Below the pieces are notes generated by a model. That model had not been told where the DNA came from and searched no databases. It worked only from the letters and a program-made list of their open reading frames with translations. This document shows positions 18,050 through 35,088 of a DNA stretch of 64,000 nt, piece after piece; position 1 is the stretch's first letter, and each line of letters begins with the position of its first letter. The stretch is from an uncultured Thermodesulfobacteriota bacterium. Its GTDB lineage: Bacteria; Desulfobacterota; DSWW01. A program made the position numbers and the translations under genes. The stretch covers positions 327,902 to 391,901 of the forward strand of contig CAYZMM010000001.1 of NCBI GenBank assembly GCA_964479535.1, read 5' to 3'.

Positions 18050-18077
18050 CTATCGGTTCCCGCCCTCGTAAACTTTA
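18050..18077 (-). promoter_or_regulatory. sigma-28 promoter for flgM-flgN-flgK-flgL-csrA-fliW: TAAAGTTT-N12-ACCGATAG
   Basis: Revcomp = TAAAGTTTACGAGGGCGGGAACCGATAG. Near-identical -35/-10 to the fliC promoter. Overlaps the last codons of the upstream gene. Confidence 0.6.
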
Positions 18078-18430
18078 AGGGCGCACCGTAGGCCGAAGGG
18101 CGAATCCCCCCTGTCCGCCGGCCCTGCCGAAGACACCTTTTCTGCTGGAAAAACCCAACCTTGCAGCTGTTCCTTCAAGCCGATTCCACCGGCCTGGACG
18201 ACCGCTTCGGACAGGGCCTGATCGAACCATCCGGCGTAGATGTTCTTGCCGAAACCGGCGCCGGACCAGAAGTCTTTGCAGAAGCTCTCGCGCATGCCCC
18301 GAATGAGCTGCGCCACGAAGACCGACTCGAAGGATTCCGCCGCCTTGTGAAAAGCCGCCTTTCTCACCTCCGGCGCTGCATCCGGCCCGACGGCATGAAC
18401 CCATGAAAGAGAATCCCCCATCTCCCTCAT
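18050..18430 (-). CDS. flgJ: flagellar rod-binding protein (FlgJ N-terminal Rod_binding domain only; no muramidase domain)
   Basis: ESFESVFVAQLIRGMRES...FDQALSEAVVQAGGIGL pattern. 126 aa, downstream of flgI. Confidence 0.65.
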   Translation of the reverse strand: MREMGDSLSWVHAVGPDAAPEVRKAAFHKAAESFESVFVAQLIRGMRESFCKDFWSGAGFGKNIYAGWFDQALSEAVVQAGGIGLKEQLQGWVFPAEKVSSAGPADRGDSPFGLRCALKVYEGGNR

Positions 18431-18445
18431 CCCCTTTCCGGACAG

Positions 18446-19591
18446 CTACATGATGACCAGTTCGGCGCTCAGTGCGCCCGCCCCTTTCATGGCCTGCAGG
18501 ATGGCGATCAGGTCCCTCGGGGTCACGCCGACCGCGTTCAGCGCCTGGACCACGTCTCCCAGCGAAACGCCTGCAGGAAGCACCATGAGATGGGAAGGCT
18601 CCTCCTCCACCGACACCTCCGTGTCCGACGTCACAACGGTCCTGCCCTCTCCGAAGGGCGCAGGCTGGGAGATCACGGGCTCCTCCTGGATGACCACGCT
18701 CAAACCGCCGTGAGAGACGGCGACCGTGGAGATCCGGACGTTCTCTCCCATGACCACCGTGCCGGTCCTCTCGTTGACCACCACCCGGGCCGGCGTATCC
18801 ACGGAAACCTCCACCCTTTCCAGCCGGGCGATGAAGTCCACCACGTGCTCCTGAAAATCGGCGGGCACGTCCACGAAGACGGTCCGGGAGTCCTGTGAAA
18901 AGGCGACCGTCTCCCCGATTTGACGGTTCATCGCCCTGGAGACCTCTTCGGCGGTGGTGAAATCGGGCTGGTTCAGTACGAAGTGAATCCGTTCGCGAAG
19001 CTGGATCGGCACCACCACGGATCGCTCGACCACAGCGCCGCTCGGGATCATGCCCACGGTGGGGTGGTTCTTCCCGGCCGAGTCCCCGCCCTGGCCCGCG
19101 GAAAAGCCGCCAAGGGAAAGGGCTCCCTGGGCGAGGGCGTACGTCTCCCCGTCGATTCCCTGCAGGGGCGTCATCAACAGGGTGCCCCCCTGAAGGCTCT
19201 TCGCATCCCCGATGGAGGAGACCGTCACATCCAGCCGCATGCCGGGCCTGGCAAAGGCGGGCAGCTCGGCGGTGACCATGACCGCCGCGACATTCTTCAC
19301 CTTCACCGCCATCGGATCCACGTTGAGCCCCATCTTGGTGAGCATGTTCGTCAGGGACTGGATCGTGAACTCGGTGCCCTGCTTGTCTCCGGTTCCGTTC
19401 AGCCCGCCCACGAGACCGTATCCCACCAGCTGGTTGTTCCGCACGCCGACGATCTTGGCGATGTCCTTGATGCGCGCCCCGTAACCGGGTTCCGGGACAC
19501 ACAGCAGGGCGCCCACGAGCGCCAGCACGAGTACGATCCATCTCGGTCGTGTCAGGAGGTTTCCCGCGATTCCCATGTCGTTTCCCGTCAT
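18446..19591 (-). CDS. flgI: flagellar P-ring protein FlgI
   Basis: ARIKDIAKIVGVRNNQLVGYGLVGGLNGTGD after signal peptide. Confidence 0.9.
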   Translation of the reverse strand: MTGNDMGIAGNLLTRPRWIVLVLALVGALLCVPEPGYGARIKDIAKIVGVRNNQLVGYGLVGGLNGTGDKQGTEFTIQSLTNMLTKMGLNVDPMAVKVKNVAAVMVTAELPAFARPGMRLDVTVSSIGDAKSLQGGTLLMTPLQGIDGETYALAQGALSLGGFSAGQGGDSAGKNHPTVGMIPSGAVVERSVVVPIQLRERIHFVLNQPDFTTAEEVSRAMNRQIGETVAFSQDSRTVFVDVPADFQEHVVDFIARLERVEVSVDTPARVVVNERTGTVVMGENVRISTVAVSHGGLSVVIQEEPVISQPAPFGEGRTVVTSDTEVSVEEEPSHLMVLPAGVSLGDVVQALNAVGVTPRDLIAILQAMKGAGALSAELVIM

Positions 19592-19646: not shown

Positions 19647-20327
19647 TCAGAGGGGCCAGATCCAGTCCATGATGCGCGCAAACCAGCCCGGGCCCTGCGT
19701 GTCTCCCAGAACGCCCTTGCCCGTGTAACGGATCCGTGCATCCGCGATCTGGGTGGAAAGAACGGTGTTGAATGCCGTGATGTCCACCGGCCGGATGATG
19801 CCGGTCATCGTGACTTGCTGTTTCTCCCGATTCACCTTGATTTCCCGGTTCGCCTCGATCCGCAGATTGCCCCCGGGAAGCTTTTCCACGATGGTCGCTG
19901 TGACCGTCAAGGCGAGCTTGTCCTTCCGAACCGTGGTTCCACCCCCTTCGAAGTCTCTCTTGTAGTTCCCCTTGAAGGTCGGAGAGAAGGACTGGCCCGA
20001 GGCGAGGAAGTTCGTCATGCCGTAATCGTCCGGAAGTCCGAAGGTGTCCTCCAGGGCTGCGTCGAGGTCGGAGGTTCTGCCGGTCTCCGTGCTTGCCTCC
20101 TGGCTCGCCGACGACTCCTCGATGATCCTCACCGTAACGATGTCGCCCACGTTCCTGGCCCGGCGGTCCAGGTAGTGGTCCGCCATTCCCTGCTGCCAGA
20201 TCGAACCGTTGAACCCGTCCCTTTCTCCTTCGCCCGGGCCCGCAACCTCGGACACGGTCTGGGTCGTGTGGGCGCACCCGACCAGCGAAAGGACCAGACA
20301 AAAAACGGTGCAGGTCATCCGTTTCAC
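19647..20327 (-). CDS. flgH: flagellar L-ring lipoprotein FlgH
   Basis: Lipoprotein signal LSLVGC; GSIWQQ...DIVTVRIIE...ITAFNTVLSTQIADARIRYTGKG. Confidence 0.9.
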   Translation of the reverse strand: MKRMTCTVFCLVLSLVGCAHTTQTVSEVAGPGEGERDGFNGSIWQQGMADHYLDRRARNVGDIVTVRIIEESSASQEASTETGRTSDLDAALEDTFGLPDDYGMTNFLASGQSFSPTFKGNYKRDFEGGGTTVRKDKLALTVTATIVEKLPGGNLRIEANREIKVNREKQQVTMTGIIRPVDITAFNTVLSTQIADARIRYTGKGVLGDTQGPGWFARIMDWIWPL

Positions 20328-20337
20328 GGCACACCTC

Positions 20338-21036
20338 CTAGAAACTGACGAGCACGGTGTGGGCGTCCACCACCGTGGCGTAGAGTTCTTTTCCCGACGC
20401 GCGGTTCAACACCCGGACCCTTTCGCCCGGATTCCCCGATTCGAGGAGCCGGCCCGGAGCCTCCACCCGAACGGCACCGCTCTCGGCCACGATGACCACC
20501 GACTGCCCTTTCTGCATGTCCCGTCGGTCACGGACGTGCCAGCGTTTCACGCACGCTCCCTTGGAAACGGGCCGCCAGACCTTCTTCCCGACGATCTCGC
20601 CGGTGCTCACGTAAAGATCTTCGTGATTCCTCCATCCCTCGCGGACCTCGGTCGAGACATCCTCCGGTCCGATACGGTGCCCCATGGGCAGGGTCCGCCG
20701 CGCCACCACGACCGGCCTCGCCCGTCGAAGCTCCGCGGCGATCCAGAGGGTCCTCTGCCGTCCGGATGCGGTGTTCACCTCCACCTGAATCGGCGTCCTG
20801 GCCCGCCAGCCCGCACCGCGGGCGAGCCGCACATCCACGATCTCCCCCTGAAGGGGCAGCACGTCCCCCCGGCGAAGGTCCCACTGCTCCATTTCGACCC
20901 CTGCCGGTGCACGGTCTTCGATGTACGCCTCCAGGGCCGCTCGCAGGCGGCCTTCATCCACCTCCCCCGCCAGACAAACACCGGCCGATGGCCCGCCCAC
21001 CGCAAACAGGAGGAAGAGAAGAAGATCCACCAGCAC
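20338..21036 (-). CDS. flgA: flagellar P-ring assembly chaperone FlgA
   Basis: Signal peptide VLVDLLLFLLFAVGGPSAG then the FlgA/SAF domain. ORF track start at 21180 is upstream junk encoded by a repeat; probable GTG start ~21036. Confidence 0.7.
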   Translation of the reverse strand: MLVDLLLFLLFAVGGPSAGVCLAGEVDEGRLRAALEAYIEDRAPAGVEMEQWDLRRGDVLPLQGEIVDVRLARGAGWRARTPIQVEVNTASGRQRTLWIAAELRRARPVVVARRTLPMGHRIGPEDVSTEVREGWRNHEDLYVSTGEIVGKKVWRPVSKGACVKRWHVRDRRDMQKGQSVVIVAESGAVRVEAPGRLLESGNPGERVRVLNRASGKELYATVVDAHTVLVSF

Positions 21037-21084
21037 TCGGCCCCACTGTGGACGGATCGCAGCCCCCCAGGGGGAATGCGAGGA

Positions 21085-21122
21085 GGGGCCTTTGCCCTTT
21101 GCCCTTTGCCCTTTGCCCTCAC
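21085..21122. repeat. heptad tandem repeat (CCCTTTG)x4 on plus; minus-strand (mRNA-sense) GGGCAAAGGGCAAAGGGCAAAGGG G-quadruplex-type motif in flgG-flgA spacer
   Basis: Direct reading; four G3 tracts with 4-nt loops. Confidence 0.6.
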
Positions 21123-21179
21123 GGCGCTCCTGACGATCAACCTGCCTCACCTGCACCATCCGATTGCACGTACGCATCA

Positions 21180-21968
21180 TTACCTTCTCAGCTGGTTCGC
21201 GGTCTGGATCATCTCGTCCGCTGTCTGAATCGCCTTCGAGTTCATCTCATAGGCCCGCTGACTGATGATCATGTTCACCATCTCTTCCACCACGTTCACG
21301 TTCGACATCTCGAGAAAGCCCTGCGACAGCATCCCGAGTCCCTCCTCGCCCGGGACACCGGCGATTTCATCCCCCGAGGCCTCGGTGGCCACGTAGAGGT
21401 TCCGGCCTACCGGACGCAAGCCGCCGGGGTTGATGAACTTGGCCAGCTCGATGTTTCCCACCTCGGTGGGGATGTCCGAATCGCCCTGTGTGACCGAGAC
21501 GATCCCGTCGGAGCTGATCGTGATGTTCCGGGTGTCCTCCGGAATCGTGATCTCCGGGTCCATCGGGTGCCCGGTAGGGGTCACCATCCTGCCGTCTCGA
21601 TCCAGTTTGAAGGAGCCGTTCCGTGTGTAGGCGAACTCTCCGTTCGGCATCAGGATCTTGAAGAACCCGTCCCCCTCGATCGCGAGGTCGAGGGCGTTGG
21701 CGGTCTGCTCCATGTTGCCTTCGGTGAAGATCTTCTGCGTGGCAATCGGGCGCACGCCCAGCCCGACGTGGAGTCCCGTCGGGATCTGGGTCTCCGGAGA
21801 GGAAGCGGCGCCGGGCAACCGTTCTTCCTGATAGAGCAGCTCCTCGAAGTCGGCCCGGCTCTTCTTGAACCCCACCGTGTTCACGTTCGCCAGGTTGTTG
21901 GCGATCACGTCGAGGTTGAGCTGCTGACTGCTCATCCCTGTGGCTGCCACCCAAAACGTTCGAATCAT
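21180..21968 (-). CDS. flgG: flagellar basal-body rod protein FlgG
   Basis: [47 protein letters not shown]. Confidence 0.95.
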
Positions 21969-21999: not shown

Positions 22000-22680
22000 T
22001 TAGATTCTGCCCAGGTCCTGGATGGTCTTCCCCTCCAGGTCGTCGAAGCTCTTCATGACCTTCATGTAGGACCCGTGGTCGCGCACGAGTTCCATCATCT
22101 TGACCATCTCTTCGATGGCGTTCACATTGGACCGTTCGAGATGGCCCTGTACGATCCGATAGTCGGCCGGATCCACCGGGCGGCCCGCCTCGTCCGCGAT
22201 GAGAAGCCGGCCGATCCTCCTCTCACCGGACCGCACCTCTCCGTCTTCCGATATCTCGACCCCCTTCTTCGGGTCGACCCGGATTTCGAGCCCCTTGTCG
22301 CTCTGGACAGGATAGCCCTCCGGGGTGACGAGCCTGCCCTGTCGGTCCAAGGCGAGCCTTCCGTCGCGAACCCCCTGAAGGCCATGGGGCGTCCGGGTCT
22401 GGAGGGTGCCCCTCCCCACAATGGCCATGTCGAGCGGTCGGCCTGTCGGCTCGACGACGCCCTGGGCATGGTCCACCACGGGCGGTCTCACCTGAACGAA
22501 GGCGATGGGATCCGCACCGTTCCCGTCGTTGGCGGGCACGGAAAAGGGAAAGGCTTCCCTGGCAACGAGTCTCTCCTTGAATCCGGGCGTGGAGGCGTTC
22601 GCCAGATTGTGGGTCACCTCCTCGAGAACCCTCTGGTTCGCAATCGCTCCGGATGCAGCGATGAAAGCGCCGATGTCCAT
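22000..22680 (-). CDS. flgF: flagellar basal-body rod protein FlgF
   Basis: [38 protein letters not shown] at 22680 preceded by GGAAGGAGAAAG. Confidence 0.85.
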
Positions 22681-22728
22681 TCCTGCTTTCTCCTTCCTTT
22701 CACGAGATAGGCTCATCCTGTTGCGTTA

Positions 22729-22822: not shown

Positions 22823-23164
22823 CTACCCGGAAGTGCTTTCCCCGTGTTCCGGGTTGGTCTCCCCTACCGCAGGGGCCTGACCATCCGGGAATGCCTCGCT
22901 CTTCAACTCGTAGAGAAAGGCGTAGATCTCGGCGATGACGCGGTAGAGTTCCTCCGGGACCTCCTGATACAGGTCCAGGCCCATGAGGGCTTCCACGAGC
23001 AAGGGATCCTCTCGAAAGGGAAGGCCCTTGCCCCTTGCCTCCTCGATGATCCTTTCGGCGAGCCACCCCTTCCCTTTCGCCACGACCCGCGGAGCATCGT
23101 CCCGGTCCCCGTCGTATCGCAGGGCGACGGCCCTTTCACTCTTCTTACCCGTACGACTCGACAA
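22823..23164 (-). CDS. FlhB C-terminal domain homolog (YlqH-like small flagellar biosynthesis protein)
   Basis: AVALRYDGDRDDAPRVVAKGKGWLAERIIEEARGKGLPFREDPLLVEALM...IPEELYRVIAEIYAFLYEL. ORF track N-terminus is junk; probable TTG start at 23164 after GGAAGGGG. Confidence 0.7.
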   Translation of the reverse strand: MSSRTGKKSERAVALRYDGDRDDAPRVVAKGKGWLAERIIEEARGKGLPFREDPLLVEALMGLDLYQEVPEELYRVIAEIYAFLYELKSEAFPDGQAPAVGETNPEHGESTSG

Positions 23165-24113
23165 ACCGGACCCCTTCCAACTCGGCTCGCAGACCCTCGG
23201 GCACGCCTCGCGAAACACGCACCTTCGACCCGGCAACGCCACCCTCGGCGAGCCGTTCCTCCAGTTTATGGGCCCCCTTCCGCAGGACGGAAAAGGCAAC
23301 GGGACCTGCACAGAAGTGTACGTCCACCCTCCTCGGGCTCCAGGTCACGGTTACGAGCAGTTCTTCGACCTCGAGGAAGGGGACTCGAAACACCACCATG
23401 ACTTCACCGTGCCGGGCGCCCCGGAATCTCTTGAGGGCCCCTTCGACGACCGTGTCCTCCCCGAAGGGAAGCCAGAAGGGGATCGGCCCCTCGGGGCCCC
23501 CCTGGAGAGAGAGGAGCTGCTTCACCTCCACCTGCTTCAGGGCGGCACGAATCGTCTCCCGAATGGACGGGACGGGATGATTCTCGGACTCCCGCAGCAG
23601 GAAGCCCTTCAGGTCCTCCGACACCGAAAGGGGGGCTCTCTTTCCCAATACCTCCCGTACCCTCGCCTCGTAAAAAAGGCCGCAGTTCAACAGGGCCCCG
23701 CGCACCGCTTCTGCGGTGCGGCAGTCCGTCACGAACCCGGGAGGCAGGGAGCCGGTCGACAAGAGCGTTCTCAGCAGGGAGAACAGGGGGGTCTTCAGGG
23801 TTTGCCTCTGCGCAAGCAGCGATTCGACCGCATTGGCCGGTATCGGCCTGGACAGGAACTGAATGAGACCCCTTTGGATTCTCACCTCCGCGAGATACCG
23901 TCCTCCCTCCTCCAGGGGAAATCGGCTTTCCACCGAAAAGGACTCCTGCCGGACCTGGATCAGGTACCGATTACCGGGCAGGCTCTCCAGGACCCGGAAG
24001 GCGACCCTGTCTCCGTGCCTGAAGAGACCGCCCCCGGAAAGACCCGTCTTCCGGACGGACGGCACCTGGAGTTCACCGACTGCCGCTGCGCTCTTCTCCC
24101 CTGTGGACATCAT
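23145..24113 (-). CDS. FliK-like protein (putative Flg_hook C-terminal domain)
   Basis: C-terminus GEVMVVFRVPFLEVEELLVTVTWSPRRVDVHFCAGPVAFSVLRKGAHKLEERLAEGG resembles the hook-length control domain. Position upstream of YlqH-like as in Firmicutes. Confidence 0.4.
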   Translation of the reverse strand: MMSTGEKSAAAVGELQVPSVRKTGLSGGGLFRHGDRVAFRVLESLPGNRYLIQVRQESFSVESRFPLEEGGRYLAEVRIQRGLIQFLSRPIPANAVESLLAQRQTLKTPLFSLLRTLLSTGSLPPGFVTDCRTAEAVRGALLNCGLFYEARVREVLGKRAPLSVSEDLKGFLLRESENHPVPSIRETIRAALKQVEVKQLLSLQGGPEGPIPFWLPFGEDTVVEGALKRFRGARHGEVMVVFRVPFLEVEELLVTVTWSPRRVDVHFCAGPVAFSVLRKGAHKLEERLAEGGVAGSKVRVSRGVPEGLRAELEGVRFVESYG

Positions 24114-24186: not shown

Positions 24187-24588
24187 TCAATGGGTATGCG
24201 CCATCTCCGGCTCGAGAGAAAAGGAGGCGACCGGCCCACAGGCCGGCCCCTTCCCCCTGGCCATCTCGGAGATGGCCAGCATCGTCTCCACTTCCCGTGT
24301 GGGCAGCTGAAGACGCTGGGCGATTTGCTCCAGGGAGCAGCCTTTCCGCTTGAGCGACACCGCCTGTTCCGTGACGCCACCGAAGGCCCACTCATGGCGC
24401 TCCTCCTCTCCGGGAGAGCGCCCCTTCTCCGCGCTCTCGCGCGGCGGGGATGTCACCGTCGGCTCGGTCTTCCTGTGGGCAAAGGAGTTCAGACGGGTCT
24501 GGACGCGGGTCCAGACCACGTACATGGCCAGCAGGATCAACAGGGCCGACACGACGAGGTCGAATCCGACCAGGATCAGAGGATTCAT
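24187..24588 (-). CDS. DUF2802-like flagellar-associated membrane protein (N-terminal TM helix + C-terminal HTH-like segment)
   Basis: ILVGFDLVVSALLILLAMYVVW TM; AVSLKRKGCSLEQIAQRLQLPTREVETMLAIS HTH-like. Confidence 0.4.
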   Translation of the reverse strand: MNPLILVGFDLVVSALLILLAMYVVWTRVQTRLNSFAHRKTEPTVTSPPRESAEKGRSPGEEERHEWAFGGVTEQAVSLKRKGCSLEQIAQRLQLPTREVETMLAISEMARGKGPACGPVASFSLEPEMAHTH

Positions 24589-34697: not shown

Positions 34698-34754
34698 GAC
34701 AGCCTCCTTACGCCGTATGGAATTTCGTACCTCTCGAGCGCACCTCAGGAGAAA

Positions 34755-34769
34755 GCAACCCCTATGCCA
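34755..34769 (-). promoter_or_regulatory. sigma-54 promoter (revcomp TGGCATAGGGGTTGC) for the fliL...fliA operon
   Basis: Consensus spacing; ~45 nt upstream of fliL ATG. Confidence 0.55.
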
Positions 34770-34885
34770 ATTCCGGCGCAGAGGTATCTGTTTGATACTG
34801 TTGAGCAATTTGTGCAGAGGCGACCACGGGGGAGTCAAGGTTGTTCGGGTGGGCAGTCAGAATAATGACGGGGCGAACGGAGTAG

Positions 34886-34996
34886 GACAAAGAGGAAAGG
34901 TCAAAGGGGAAAGGGCGAAGGACAAAGGACAAAGGGGAAAGGGCGAAGGGGAAAGGGCGAAGGACAAAGGACAAAGGGGAAAGGGCGAAGGGCGAG
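34886..34996. repeat. purine-rich heptad tandem array (units GGGAAAG / GGCGAAG / GACAAAG; 14-bp GGGAAAGGGCGAAG x4 interleaved with GACAAAGGACAAAG x2) upstream of the fliL sigma-54 promoter
   Basis: Direct reading of 34886..34996; multiple G3-G4 tracts on plus strand. Confidence 0.6.
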
Positions 34997-35060: not shown

Positions 35061-35088
35061 CGGCGGGGCGCATTTCAGCGCCCCGCCG
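35061..35088 (-). terminator. GC-rich stem-loop (CGGCGGGGCGC-ATTTCA-GCGCCCCGCCG) 12 nt after flgE stop; putative terminator/attenuator or mRNA 3' stabiliser (no U-tract)
   Basis: Perfect 11-bp inverted repeat with 6-nt loop. Confidence 0.4.

Follow-up and report, generated by a model that had tools for sequence, protein, structure and literature searches.

A perfect heptanucleotide array probably lies in frame within the signal-peptide leader of FlgA in an uncultured Thermodesulfobacteriota bacterium

We analysed a 64,000-nucleotide stretch of DNA (hereafter, the window) from an uncultured Thermodesulfobacteriota bacterium and, within it, a perfect heptanucleotide tandem repeat, A(GGGCAAA)4GG, found where the flagellar genes flgG and flgA meet. 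The tract probably belongs to a lineage-wide class of heptameric repeats, as a copy tolerated in frame in a disposable part of FlgA, the n-region of its signal peptide. We consider it likely that the members of this class are short heptanucleotide arrays, typically of about four units (31 nt), which end in ...AGG followed by a C-rich flank and sit at junctions of co-directional flagellar genes. An insertion of approximately 100–150 nt carrying the array would have settled in the n-region and would then have been kept in frame, an event tolerable in the leader since little more than positive charge and an open frame is required of the n-region.

The repeat and its immediate surroundings contain the following elements:

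21089..21119, minus strand: perfect heptanucleotide tandem repeat A(GGGCAAA)4GG, 4.4 units, 31 nt (Tandem Repeats Finder, TRF, score 62, 100% matches; direct reading).
21095..21118, minus strand: G-quadruplex (G4) motif GGGCAAAGGGCAAAGGGCAAAGGG, a canonical G3N4G3N4G3N4G3 on the mRNA-sense strand (regular-expression scan; ViennaRNA gquad).
21063..21088, minus strand: C-rich 3' flank CCCCTCCTCGCATTCCCCC with the palindrome CCCCCTGGGGGG at 21074..21063, overlapping the last five C's of the flank (direct reading; relatives).

On the plus strand TRF reports the unit as CCTTTGC, repeated 4.4 times at 21089..21119. Direct reading of the minus strand gives CGTGA, four GGGCAAA units and then GGCCCCTCC, so that A(GGGCAAA)4GG is bounded by gtg before and cccc after; written as an RNA or DNA oligonucleotide, the tract is GAGGGCAAAGGGCAAAGGGCAAAGGGCAAAGGCC. 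A sequence-only reading of this DNA had described a four-copy GGGCAAA repeat with a 7-nt period and a canonical G3N4 x4 motif on the transcribed strand, and direct reading, TRF and the regular-expression scan agree with it on all these points. It had also seen more G-runs ahead of the tract; upstream, however, there are only GG or GGT runs (GGTGCAGGTGAGGCAGG) and no further G3 run.

A perfect 24-match tract of period 7 is expected by chance about 1.1e-9 times per 64 kb, and the window contains 15 occurrences of the corresponding 14-mer, allowing 2 mismatches at most, against 0.44 expected. Together with the TRF score, these values reject a chance or low-complexity origin: the tandem repeat is real and beyond chance. 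The G4 motif presents a different picture. Four runs of at least 3 G with loops of 1–7 nt are present at 21118..21095, the pattern of a canonical intramolecular G4, but the window, with 62.5% G+C, holds 14 canonical motifs on its two strands against 13.0 +/- 3.7 in first-order Markov simulations. The notion that G4 motifs are rare here was accordingly rejected; the motif is real as a sequence yet statistically ordinary, and only the tandem repeat exceeds chance.

The position of the tract relative to the two genes is defined by three features:

21180..21968, minus strand: flgG, distal rod protein, the putative upstream partner of flgA in translational coupling (Pfam PF00460, PF22692, PF06429).
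20338..21180, minus strand: flgA open reading frame (ORF), 280 residues (279 from the second ATG), with ChapFlgA/SAF domains at residues 144-278 (Pfam PF13144, 7.5e-25).
21175..21189, minus strand: overlap of the flgG stop and the flgA start, GAGAAGG-TAATGATG, with ATGs at 21180 and 21177, of which the NCBI caller chose 21177.

The two genes had already been named as flgG and flgA from the sequence, and both Pfam and NCBIfam uphold the names. FlgA matches TIGR03170 over residues 144-278 (3.3e-27, 95.1 bits, cut-off 54.65), and the ChapFlgA/SAF C-terminal domain combined with the flgG-flgA-flgH-flgI synteny identifies it as the P-ring chaperone. The public record for the genome carries a 279-residue FlgA, P0001, which is 100% identical and starts at the second ATG. 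Stop and start overlap as TAATG (21182..21178) with the second ATG directly behind (AGAAGG-TAATG-ATG), and a Shine-Dalgarno (SD)-like AGAAGG lies within the last flgG codons, ahead of the flgA ATG. With this arrangement, flgA would start at the ATG that overlaps the flgG stop and would be translationally coupled to flgG. An equivalent arrangement of stop and start is found throughout the relatives (TAATCATG, TAACATG, TAAGCCATG).

From the overlapping ATG, the reading frame stays open across the repeat and continues into FlgA. The tract begins 62 nt past the flgG stop, approximately 59-62 nt inside the flgA ORF. The sequence-only reading had placed it in a flgG-flgA intercistronic spacer, at the site where flgA translation initiates. 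There is no such spacer, given the TAATG overlap and the continuous ORF, and the tract corresponds instead to about codons 21-32 of pre-FlgA. The locus showed no Rfam family and no sigma-70 promoter-like or terminator-like site, and a known RNA family, a sigma-70 promoter or an intrinsic terminator was consequently dropped as an explanation.

In the predicted protein, the repeat falls within the first of the elements of a secretion signal:

21085..21117, minus strand: codons 22-32 of pre-FlgA, derived from the repeat, GKGQRAKGKGP, net charge +4 (ORF translation).
21037..21180, minus strand: enlarged signal-peptide n-region, residues 1-48, net charge +9, which holds the repeat and is missing in the outgroup L004.
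20968..21036, minus strand: signal-peptide h-region VLVDLLLFLLFAVGGP and c-region SAGVCLA, with predicted cleavage before the conserved GEV(T/D)E (hydropathy scan; homologues).

The repeat would thus be read as GKGQRAKGKG within a strongly basic n-region of about 48 residues, and the leader of this Sec signal peptide would be cut between ...VCLA and GEV... on export. The elements of a Sec signal cleaved by signal peptidase I are all present, namely the basic n-region (+9), a hydrophobic h-region and small residues at -3/-1, as judged from hydropathy and with a predicted cleavage site. Kyte-Doolittle means over 11-mers reach 3.0 in the hydrophobic core VLVDLLLFLLFAVGG, C-L-A stands immediately before GEV, and (A/G)GE[VI]TE is kept in most FlgA homologues. 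A Tat signal was rejected by inspection: the RR at residues 19-20 is distant from the h-region and lacks the Tat consensus.

To place the junction in context, it was compared with that of 12 further loci from metagenome-assembled genomes (MAGs), metagenome contigs and exact-protein look-ups; scans of genomes and metagenomes with the FlgA profile gave only 3 and 7 loci, respectively. Loci and contigs are given below by their numbers (L001 and so on). In 12/12 of these loci the flgG stop is followed within 0-5 nt by an ATG. In the window, L002-L010, L013, L014/15 and L016, the ATG at the flgG stop opens a frame that leads into mature FlgA without a stop codon. The distance from this ATG to the GE of the mature protein varies widely, from 21 codons in L004, 26 in L006/7 and 30 in L008-10, through 48 in L003 and 52 in L005 and L013, up to 64 in L002, 70 in L014/15, 70 or 71 in the window and 74 in L016, with the differences among lineages all being whole codons. 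The outgroup L004, a Thermodesulfobacteriota MAG, passes from MSRTC straight into the h-region, whereas the window reads MMRTC and then the insert. L002, L014/15 and L016 lack any in-frame ATG, GTG or TTG in the stretch from the array to the hydrophobic core, so a FlgA with a signal peptide can be obtained in these lineages only by reading through the array. From this comparative conservation of frame we infer that the repeat is translated within an enlarged n-region that is removed on export; the actual translation and cleavage of the tract, and its neutrality, are deduced from sequence.

The FlgA leader of L012, with an apparently scrambled in-frame hydrophobic core, was discounted because the split genes of that assembly indicate indel errors. 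Split flgG, flagellin, flhF and fliW genes were observed in the European Nucleotide Archive (ENA) assemblies of L012 (9209-9998, 17054-17896) and L013 (3400-4421, 16364-16802), which makes the reading frames from both unreliable.

Seven lineages carry an array at the flgG/flgA site, with three unit types, so that position is conserved while the unit changes. The array reads AGGGATC(AGGGGTC)3AGG in L002 and L014/15, (GGGATCA)2(GGGGTCA)2GG in L005 and AGGGGCC AGGGATC AGGGACC AGGGGTC AGG in L013, while L016 has a degenerate (GGCAAAA)-type array without four G3 runs. TRF counts 4.4 units in the window, L002 and L014/15, 4.3 in L005 and 3.6-4.7 in L013 and L012. At this site the arrays of the relatives end, like that of the window, in an AGG-CCC(C) boundary, with a C-rich flank after each, and the 'RDQGSGVRGQA' segments of many FlgA homologues are translated heptamer arrays.

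About half of the related lineages (L003, L004, L006-L010) show no array at the flgG/flgA junction. Where the array is absent, the junctions have a distinct flgG 3' end in common (AGGCGATAA): flgG ends in CTGAGGCGATAA in L008 (7389-7401), L009 and L010, and in CTGAGAAGGTAA where the array is present (window 21180-21189). The latter end gives the stronger SD-like AGAAGG before the flgA ATG. As the flgG 3' ends differ with array status, array presence covaries with the coupling signal. A neighbour-joining tree of FlgA suggested multiple array losses, which we set aside in view of the nucleotide alignment: with one flgG 3' end common to the array-free junctions, one event, gain or loss, is enough, and the tree does not decide the matter.

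Heptamer arrays are not restricted to flgA. Others were located in the window and in its relatives:

34884..34993, plus strand: second heptamer array of the window, 15.7 units of AGGGCAA / GGGGAAA / GGGCGAA / GGACAAA, with a 42-nt higher-order period (TRF, sequence, relatives).
L006 280-310, 825-855, 885-910 and 999-1022; L008 4285-4315 and 4433-4452; L014 151-179: heptamer arrays flanking 100-150-nt cores, in inverted pairs.

The second array occupies the flgE-fliL spacer with its G-rich strand antisense to transcription, so that the mRNA carries the C-rich strand. The core of this spacer is conserved among relatives and the insert within the core is variable: there is none in L020-22, an inverted pair of heptamer arrays in L023, inverted hexamer arrays plus a one-unit remnant in L019 and the 16-unit expansion in the window. 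Inverted heptamer arrays are also present between the cluster genes for a 133-residue and a 321-residue protein in L006/7, L008 and L014, with about 4.4 units of AGGTGTC or AGCTGTT, types incapable of forming a G4; in the window and L002 that spacer is compact. Among the periods tested (4-12), 7 is the only one with strong tandem tracts in 220 kb of non-redundant lineage DNA. Assessed on 64 kb of this genome and pieces of approximately 20 kb of its relatives, dispersal amounts to two arrays in the 64 kb and several in the relatives' spacers.

Two smaller repeats were observed besides these arrays. A two-unit heptamer, GGCAAGG x2.1 (minus strand, 23025-23039), lies within a stand-alone FlhB-C-terminal-like ORF (22823-23311) and is identical in L001. 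Inverted hexamer arrays (CTCGTC / GACGAG and GAGGAC runs), found in L019 at about 2570-2615 and 2745-2775, in L008 at about 4385 and in L013 at about 6830, are a second short-unit array family in the intergenic regions of the lineage.

The closest parallel is the G-rich heptameric class of simple sequence repeats (SSRs) described by Rehm et al. (2015, PLoS One 10:e0144275; PMC4692102), with GGGAATC units in Xanthomonas and GGGGA(C/T)T units in Nostoc. Those repeats are dispersed, 89-93% intergenic and 7-11% intragenic, and under-represented in coding regions; most lie between ORFs of the same direction, at a mean distance of 28 nt from the upstream one; either strand may carry them, frequently in convergent inverted pairs, and there is a marked preference for four units in a range of 2-26 (PMC4692102). 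Between two Xanthomonas species 83% are positionally conserved with length and sequence differing, and they form G4s in vitro, although no regulatory role was identified and phase variation was considered unlikely (PMC4692102). The arrays described here resemble them in the tandem 7-nt unit with a G-run of at least 3, (GGGCAAA)4.4 being pure; in the four-unit preference with four G-tracts, the 15.7 units of the second array falling within the reported range; in their closeness to an upstream stop between co-directional ORFs, on either strand and with inverted pairs (L006, L008, L023); and in positions kept in related genomes while unit or length varies, from none to 16 units at the flgE-fliL site. 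Unlike them, the tract belongs to a different phylum, is intragenic and is apparently translated in frame in a signal-peptide n-region, and its sister arrays include non-G4 units. The unit GGGCAAA also departs from the consensus GGGNATC / GGGGA(C/T)T, and the GGGATCA/GGGGTCA of relatives come near the published units without matching them exactly, so we file the tract as the same kind of repeat and not as the same sequence family.

Several observations weigh against a tolerated, neutral array. The GGG at unit positions 2-4 is invariant in 24/24 units from six lineages while positions 5-7 vary, and 6/7 array-bearing lineages have exactly four G3+ runs; this invariance and the constant four G-runs could reflect selection for structure rather than neutrality. 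The 100% purity of the tract in the window points to homogenisation or slippage in the recent past, 48 residues make an unusually long n-region for a Sec signal peptide, and in-frame GTGs at 21036 and 21030, just ahead of the hydrophobic core, are the window's own candidates for an internal start. If flgA began at one of these GTGs, the tract would be untranslated spacer RNA. This is very improbable, even though the two codons directly precede the core, gene callers gave many homologues short N-termini and 89-93% of such arrays are intergenic in Xanthomonas (PMC4692102). Neither GTG has a usable SD (cacagtggggccgaGTG); the leader from a GTG start, MLVDLLLF..., has no basic n-region residue and includes an Asp; three array-bearing relatives lack any start codon there; length differences among lineages are always multiples of three; and the homologues called short are array-free, their start being the flgG-proximal ATG or its internal Met. 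The sequence-only reading had set a quadruplex motif at the site of flgA initiation. In a quadruplex brake, a three-tetrad G4 in the RNA (or in the non-template DNA) about 60 nt into flgA would slow ribosomes re-initiated from flgG and keep the FlgA:FlgG ratio low. The motif is indeed on the transcribed strand, and ViennaRNA with gquad includes a G4 in the minimum free energy (MFE) structure of the mRNA context of the window (-120.0 vs -106.2 kcal/mol) and favours it in the isolated tract (-8.4 vs -4.4 kcal/mol). The loops vary around the constant G-runs, related heptamer oligonucleotides give K+-dependent G4s in vitro (PMC4692102), and stabilised coding-region RNA G4s (rG4s) inhibit translation in mycobacteria and E. 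coli (PMC10801317). However, the array is missing from about half of the lineages and is thus dispensable; for L002, L005, L013 and L014 the folding model joins the G-runs to the C-rich flank, and their MFE structures contain no G4; and L016 does not have the four G3 runs. As for regulation, sister arrays of non-G4 units (AGGTGTC, AGCTGTT) also have about 4.4 units, transcription of the second array of the window yields the C-rich strand, G4 motif density equals chance expectation and no regulatory role emerged for the class of Rehm et al. (PMC4692102). Moreover, since the tract begins about 59 nt past the start codon, initiation cannot be occluded and early elongation could at most be slowed. 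Such a brake is therefore unlikely as the explanation of the tract: quadruplex potential probably comes with the G-rich repeat class, perhaps with a modest slowing of early flgA elongation, and a G4 is apparently not required for flgA expression in the clade.

A second possibility raised from the sequence was slipped-strand mispairing that would alter flgG-flgA spacing. Copy-number change would instead shift the flgA reading frame, which gives the idea a sharper mechanism: gain or loss of one unit would frameshift flgA and reversibly switch off P-ring assembly, and with it flagellation, in part of the population. The unit is not a multiple of 3 and lies near the coding sequence's 5' end, as in an SSR contingency locus; the frame is kept only with 1, 4 or 7 units, while 2, 3, 5, 6 or 8 truncate the ORF, 5 units giving a 77-residue product. 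The array is pure, and in some prokaryotes SSRs are both over-represented and more variable near N-termini (PMC3315296). In addition, SRR7048227 yields Logan k=31 contigs that match the window at 100% identity and break at the tract: L001 ends at 21090, L017 begins at 21118, and the gap omits only the single fully periodic 31-mer. Since no 30-mer recurs in the window allele, such a break requires that SRR7048227 contain a GGGCAAA tract of 5 units or more, at this locus or another; it could equally stem from a different locus or organism with the same heptamer. Against a switch, four units are few and probably too short for high-frequency slippage, SSR mutability climbing steeply with length (PMC3315296); about 4 units are kept in 6/6 clear array-bearing lineages despite 25-40% protein divergence; two independent samples of the L014/L015 lineage agree in copy number; phase variation was judged unlikely for the Rehm class (PMC4692102); and no out-of-frame allele was recovered among the loci compared. 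In exact-protein look-ups for other strains, FlgG and FlgH led only to SRR7048227, with contigs broken at the tract, and the 280- and 279-residue forms of FlgA had no exact match in the contig index. We regard a contingency tract as quite improbable. The invariant GGG, the constant four units and the graph break are all compatible with a selected device in a broader sense, either a G4 that throttles FlgA relative to FlgG or a 7-nt switch of P-ring assembly in an environmental, sulfate-reducer-like population, to which we give a small chance. Were it true, a selected device written into a disposable signal-peptide leader would cost the mature protein nothing. A last alternative concerns origin and not function, with the array as the surviving arm of a decayed small mobile or palindromic element, similar to miniature inverted-repeat transposable elements (MITEs) or repetitive extragenic palindromes (REPs). 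Inverted array pairs do surround 100-150-nt cores in otherwise compact spacers (L006 825-1022, L008 4285-4452, L023), close relatives differ in array presence, and the architecture (AGNNNNN)4-AGG-CCCC recurs at unrelated sites. On the other hand, we could recognise neither an inverted partner array nor a terminal inverted repeat nor a target-site duplication around the flgA insert, the units vary from site to site, as copies of a single mobile element would not, and no transposase is linked to the arrays; such an origin seems improbable. These alternatives are not all mutually exclusive.

The break in the Logan contigs of SRR7048227 is not unique to flgA: they also break in the second array, where L018 starts at window position 34933.

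Other known systems share some of the properties of the tract. In 1990, Mazel et al. reportedly described the short tandemly repeated repetitive (STRR) heptanucleotides of Calothrix PCC 7601 as several sequence families, dispersed and intergenic. Compared by period and dispersal only, they are similar to the present arrays in having tandem heptanucleotide units of several families dispersed in one lineage, but their units are unrelated, their phylum is another and they are described as intergenic. Heptanucleotide repeats of Calothrix are also cited by Rehm et al. (PMC4692102). In the PE/PPE transcripts of M. tuberculosis, coding-region rG4s inhibit translation (PMC10801317). Like these, the flgA motif is a canonical sense-strand G3 x4 motif in the coding region of a GC-rich bacterium; unlike them, it is a predicted quadruplex, is not conserved at its site across the clade and stands beside a competing C-rich flank. 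The extended signal peptide region (ESPR) of autotransporters is a signal-peptide extension with a conserved N-terminal sequence motif. FlgA has in common with it a Sec-type h/c region after an unusually long charged N-terminal extension, which in FlgA, however, is of low complexity, repeat-derived and variable or absent among close relatives. Homopolymeric tracts in Campylobacter flgR, flgS and flhA and in Helicobacter fliP act as flagellar contingency loci. Within the general framework of SSR contingency loci (PMC3315296), the likeness lies in a non-triplet repeat towards the 5' end of a coding sequence for flagellar assembly, where a change of one unit in either direction abolishes the product; the flgA tract differs in having four 7-nt units, stable copy number across lineages and no observed length polymorphism, and in belonging to an environmental MAG instead of a host-adapted pathogen.

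If the tract is indeed a tolerated array in the FlgA leader, four-unit G-rich heptameric repeats, so far a matter of Xanthomonas and Nostoc, extend to an uncultured Thermodesulfobacteriota-like lineage. A G-rich heptamer array could then persist in frame within a coding sequence when lodged in a signal-peptide n-region, where it would yield a basic, low-complexity leader. An array in such a position can mislead annotation both ways, either as a 'spacer' or as an 'N-terminal extension'. The format of approximately four units and 31 nt is common to non-G4 units as well; if this holds genome-wide, it would speak against G4 folding as the reason for the four-unit preference. The locus also offers a compact test bed for separating the effects of G4, frame and peptide, with the array-free orthologues as natural controls.

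The tract belongs to a run of flagellar genes, all on the minus strand and assigned with Pfam and NCBIfam, in which flgF (22000-22716) precedes flgG (21180-21968) and flgA (20338-21180). Downstream, on the same strand, are flgH (19647-20327), flgI (18446-19591) and a rod-binding flgJ-like gene (18050-18430). The cluster also holds two conserved genes without a Pfam match, encoding a 133-residue membrane protein (24187-24588, minus strand) and a 322-residue protein (23145-24113, minus strand), which are within the flagellar cluster in every relative examined.

Around the flgE-fliL spacer, two further elements are conserved. A GC-rich hairpin, GGCGGGGCG-loop-CGCCCCGCC (35062-35087, minus strand), stands directly past the flgE stop; it is kept in relatives, has no T-run and may act in termination, attenuation or mRNA stabilisation. 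Upstream of fliL, a sigma-54-type -24/-12 box, TTGGCATAGGGGTTGCT (34754-34770, minus strand), is conserved in L018-L023 and suggests a sigma-54-dependent fliL-fliM-fliN-fliOPQR operon.

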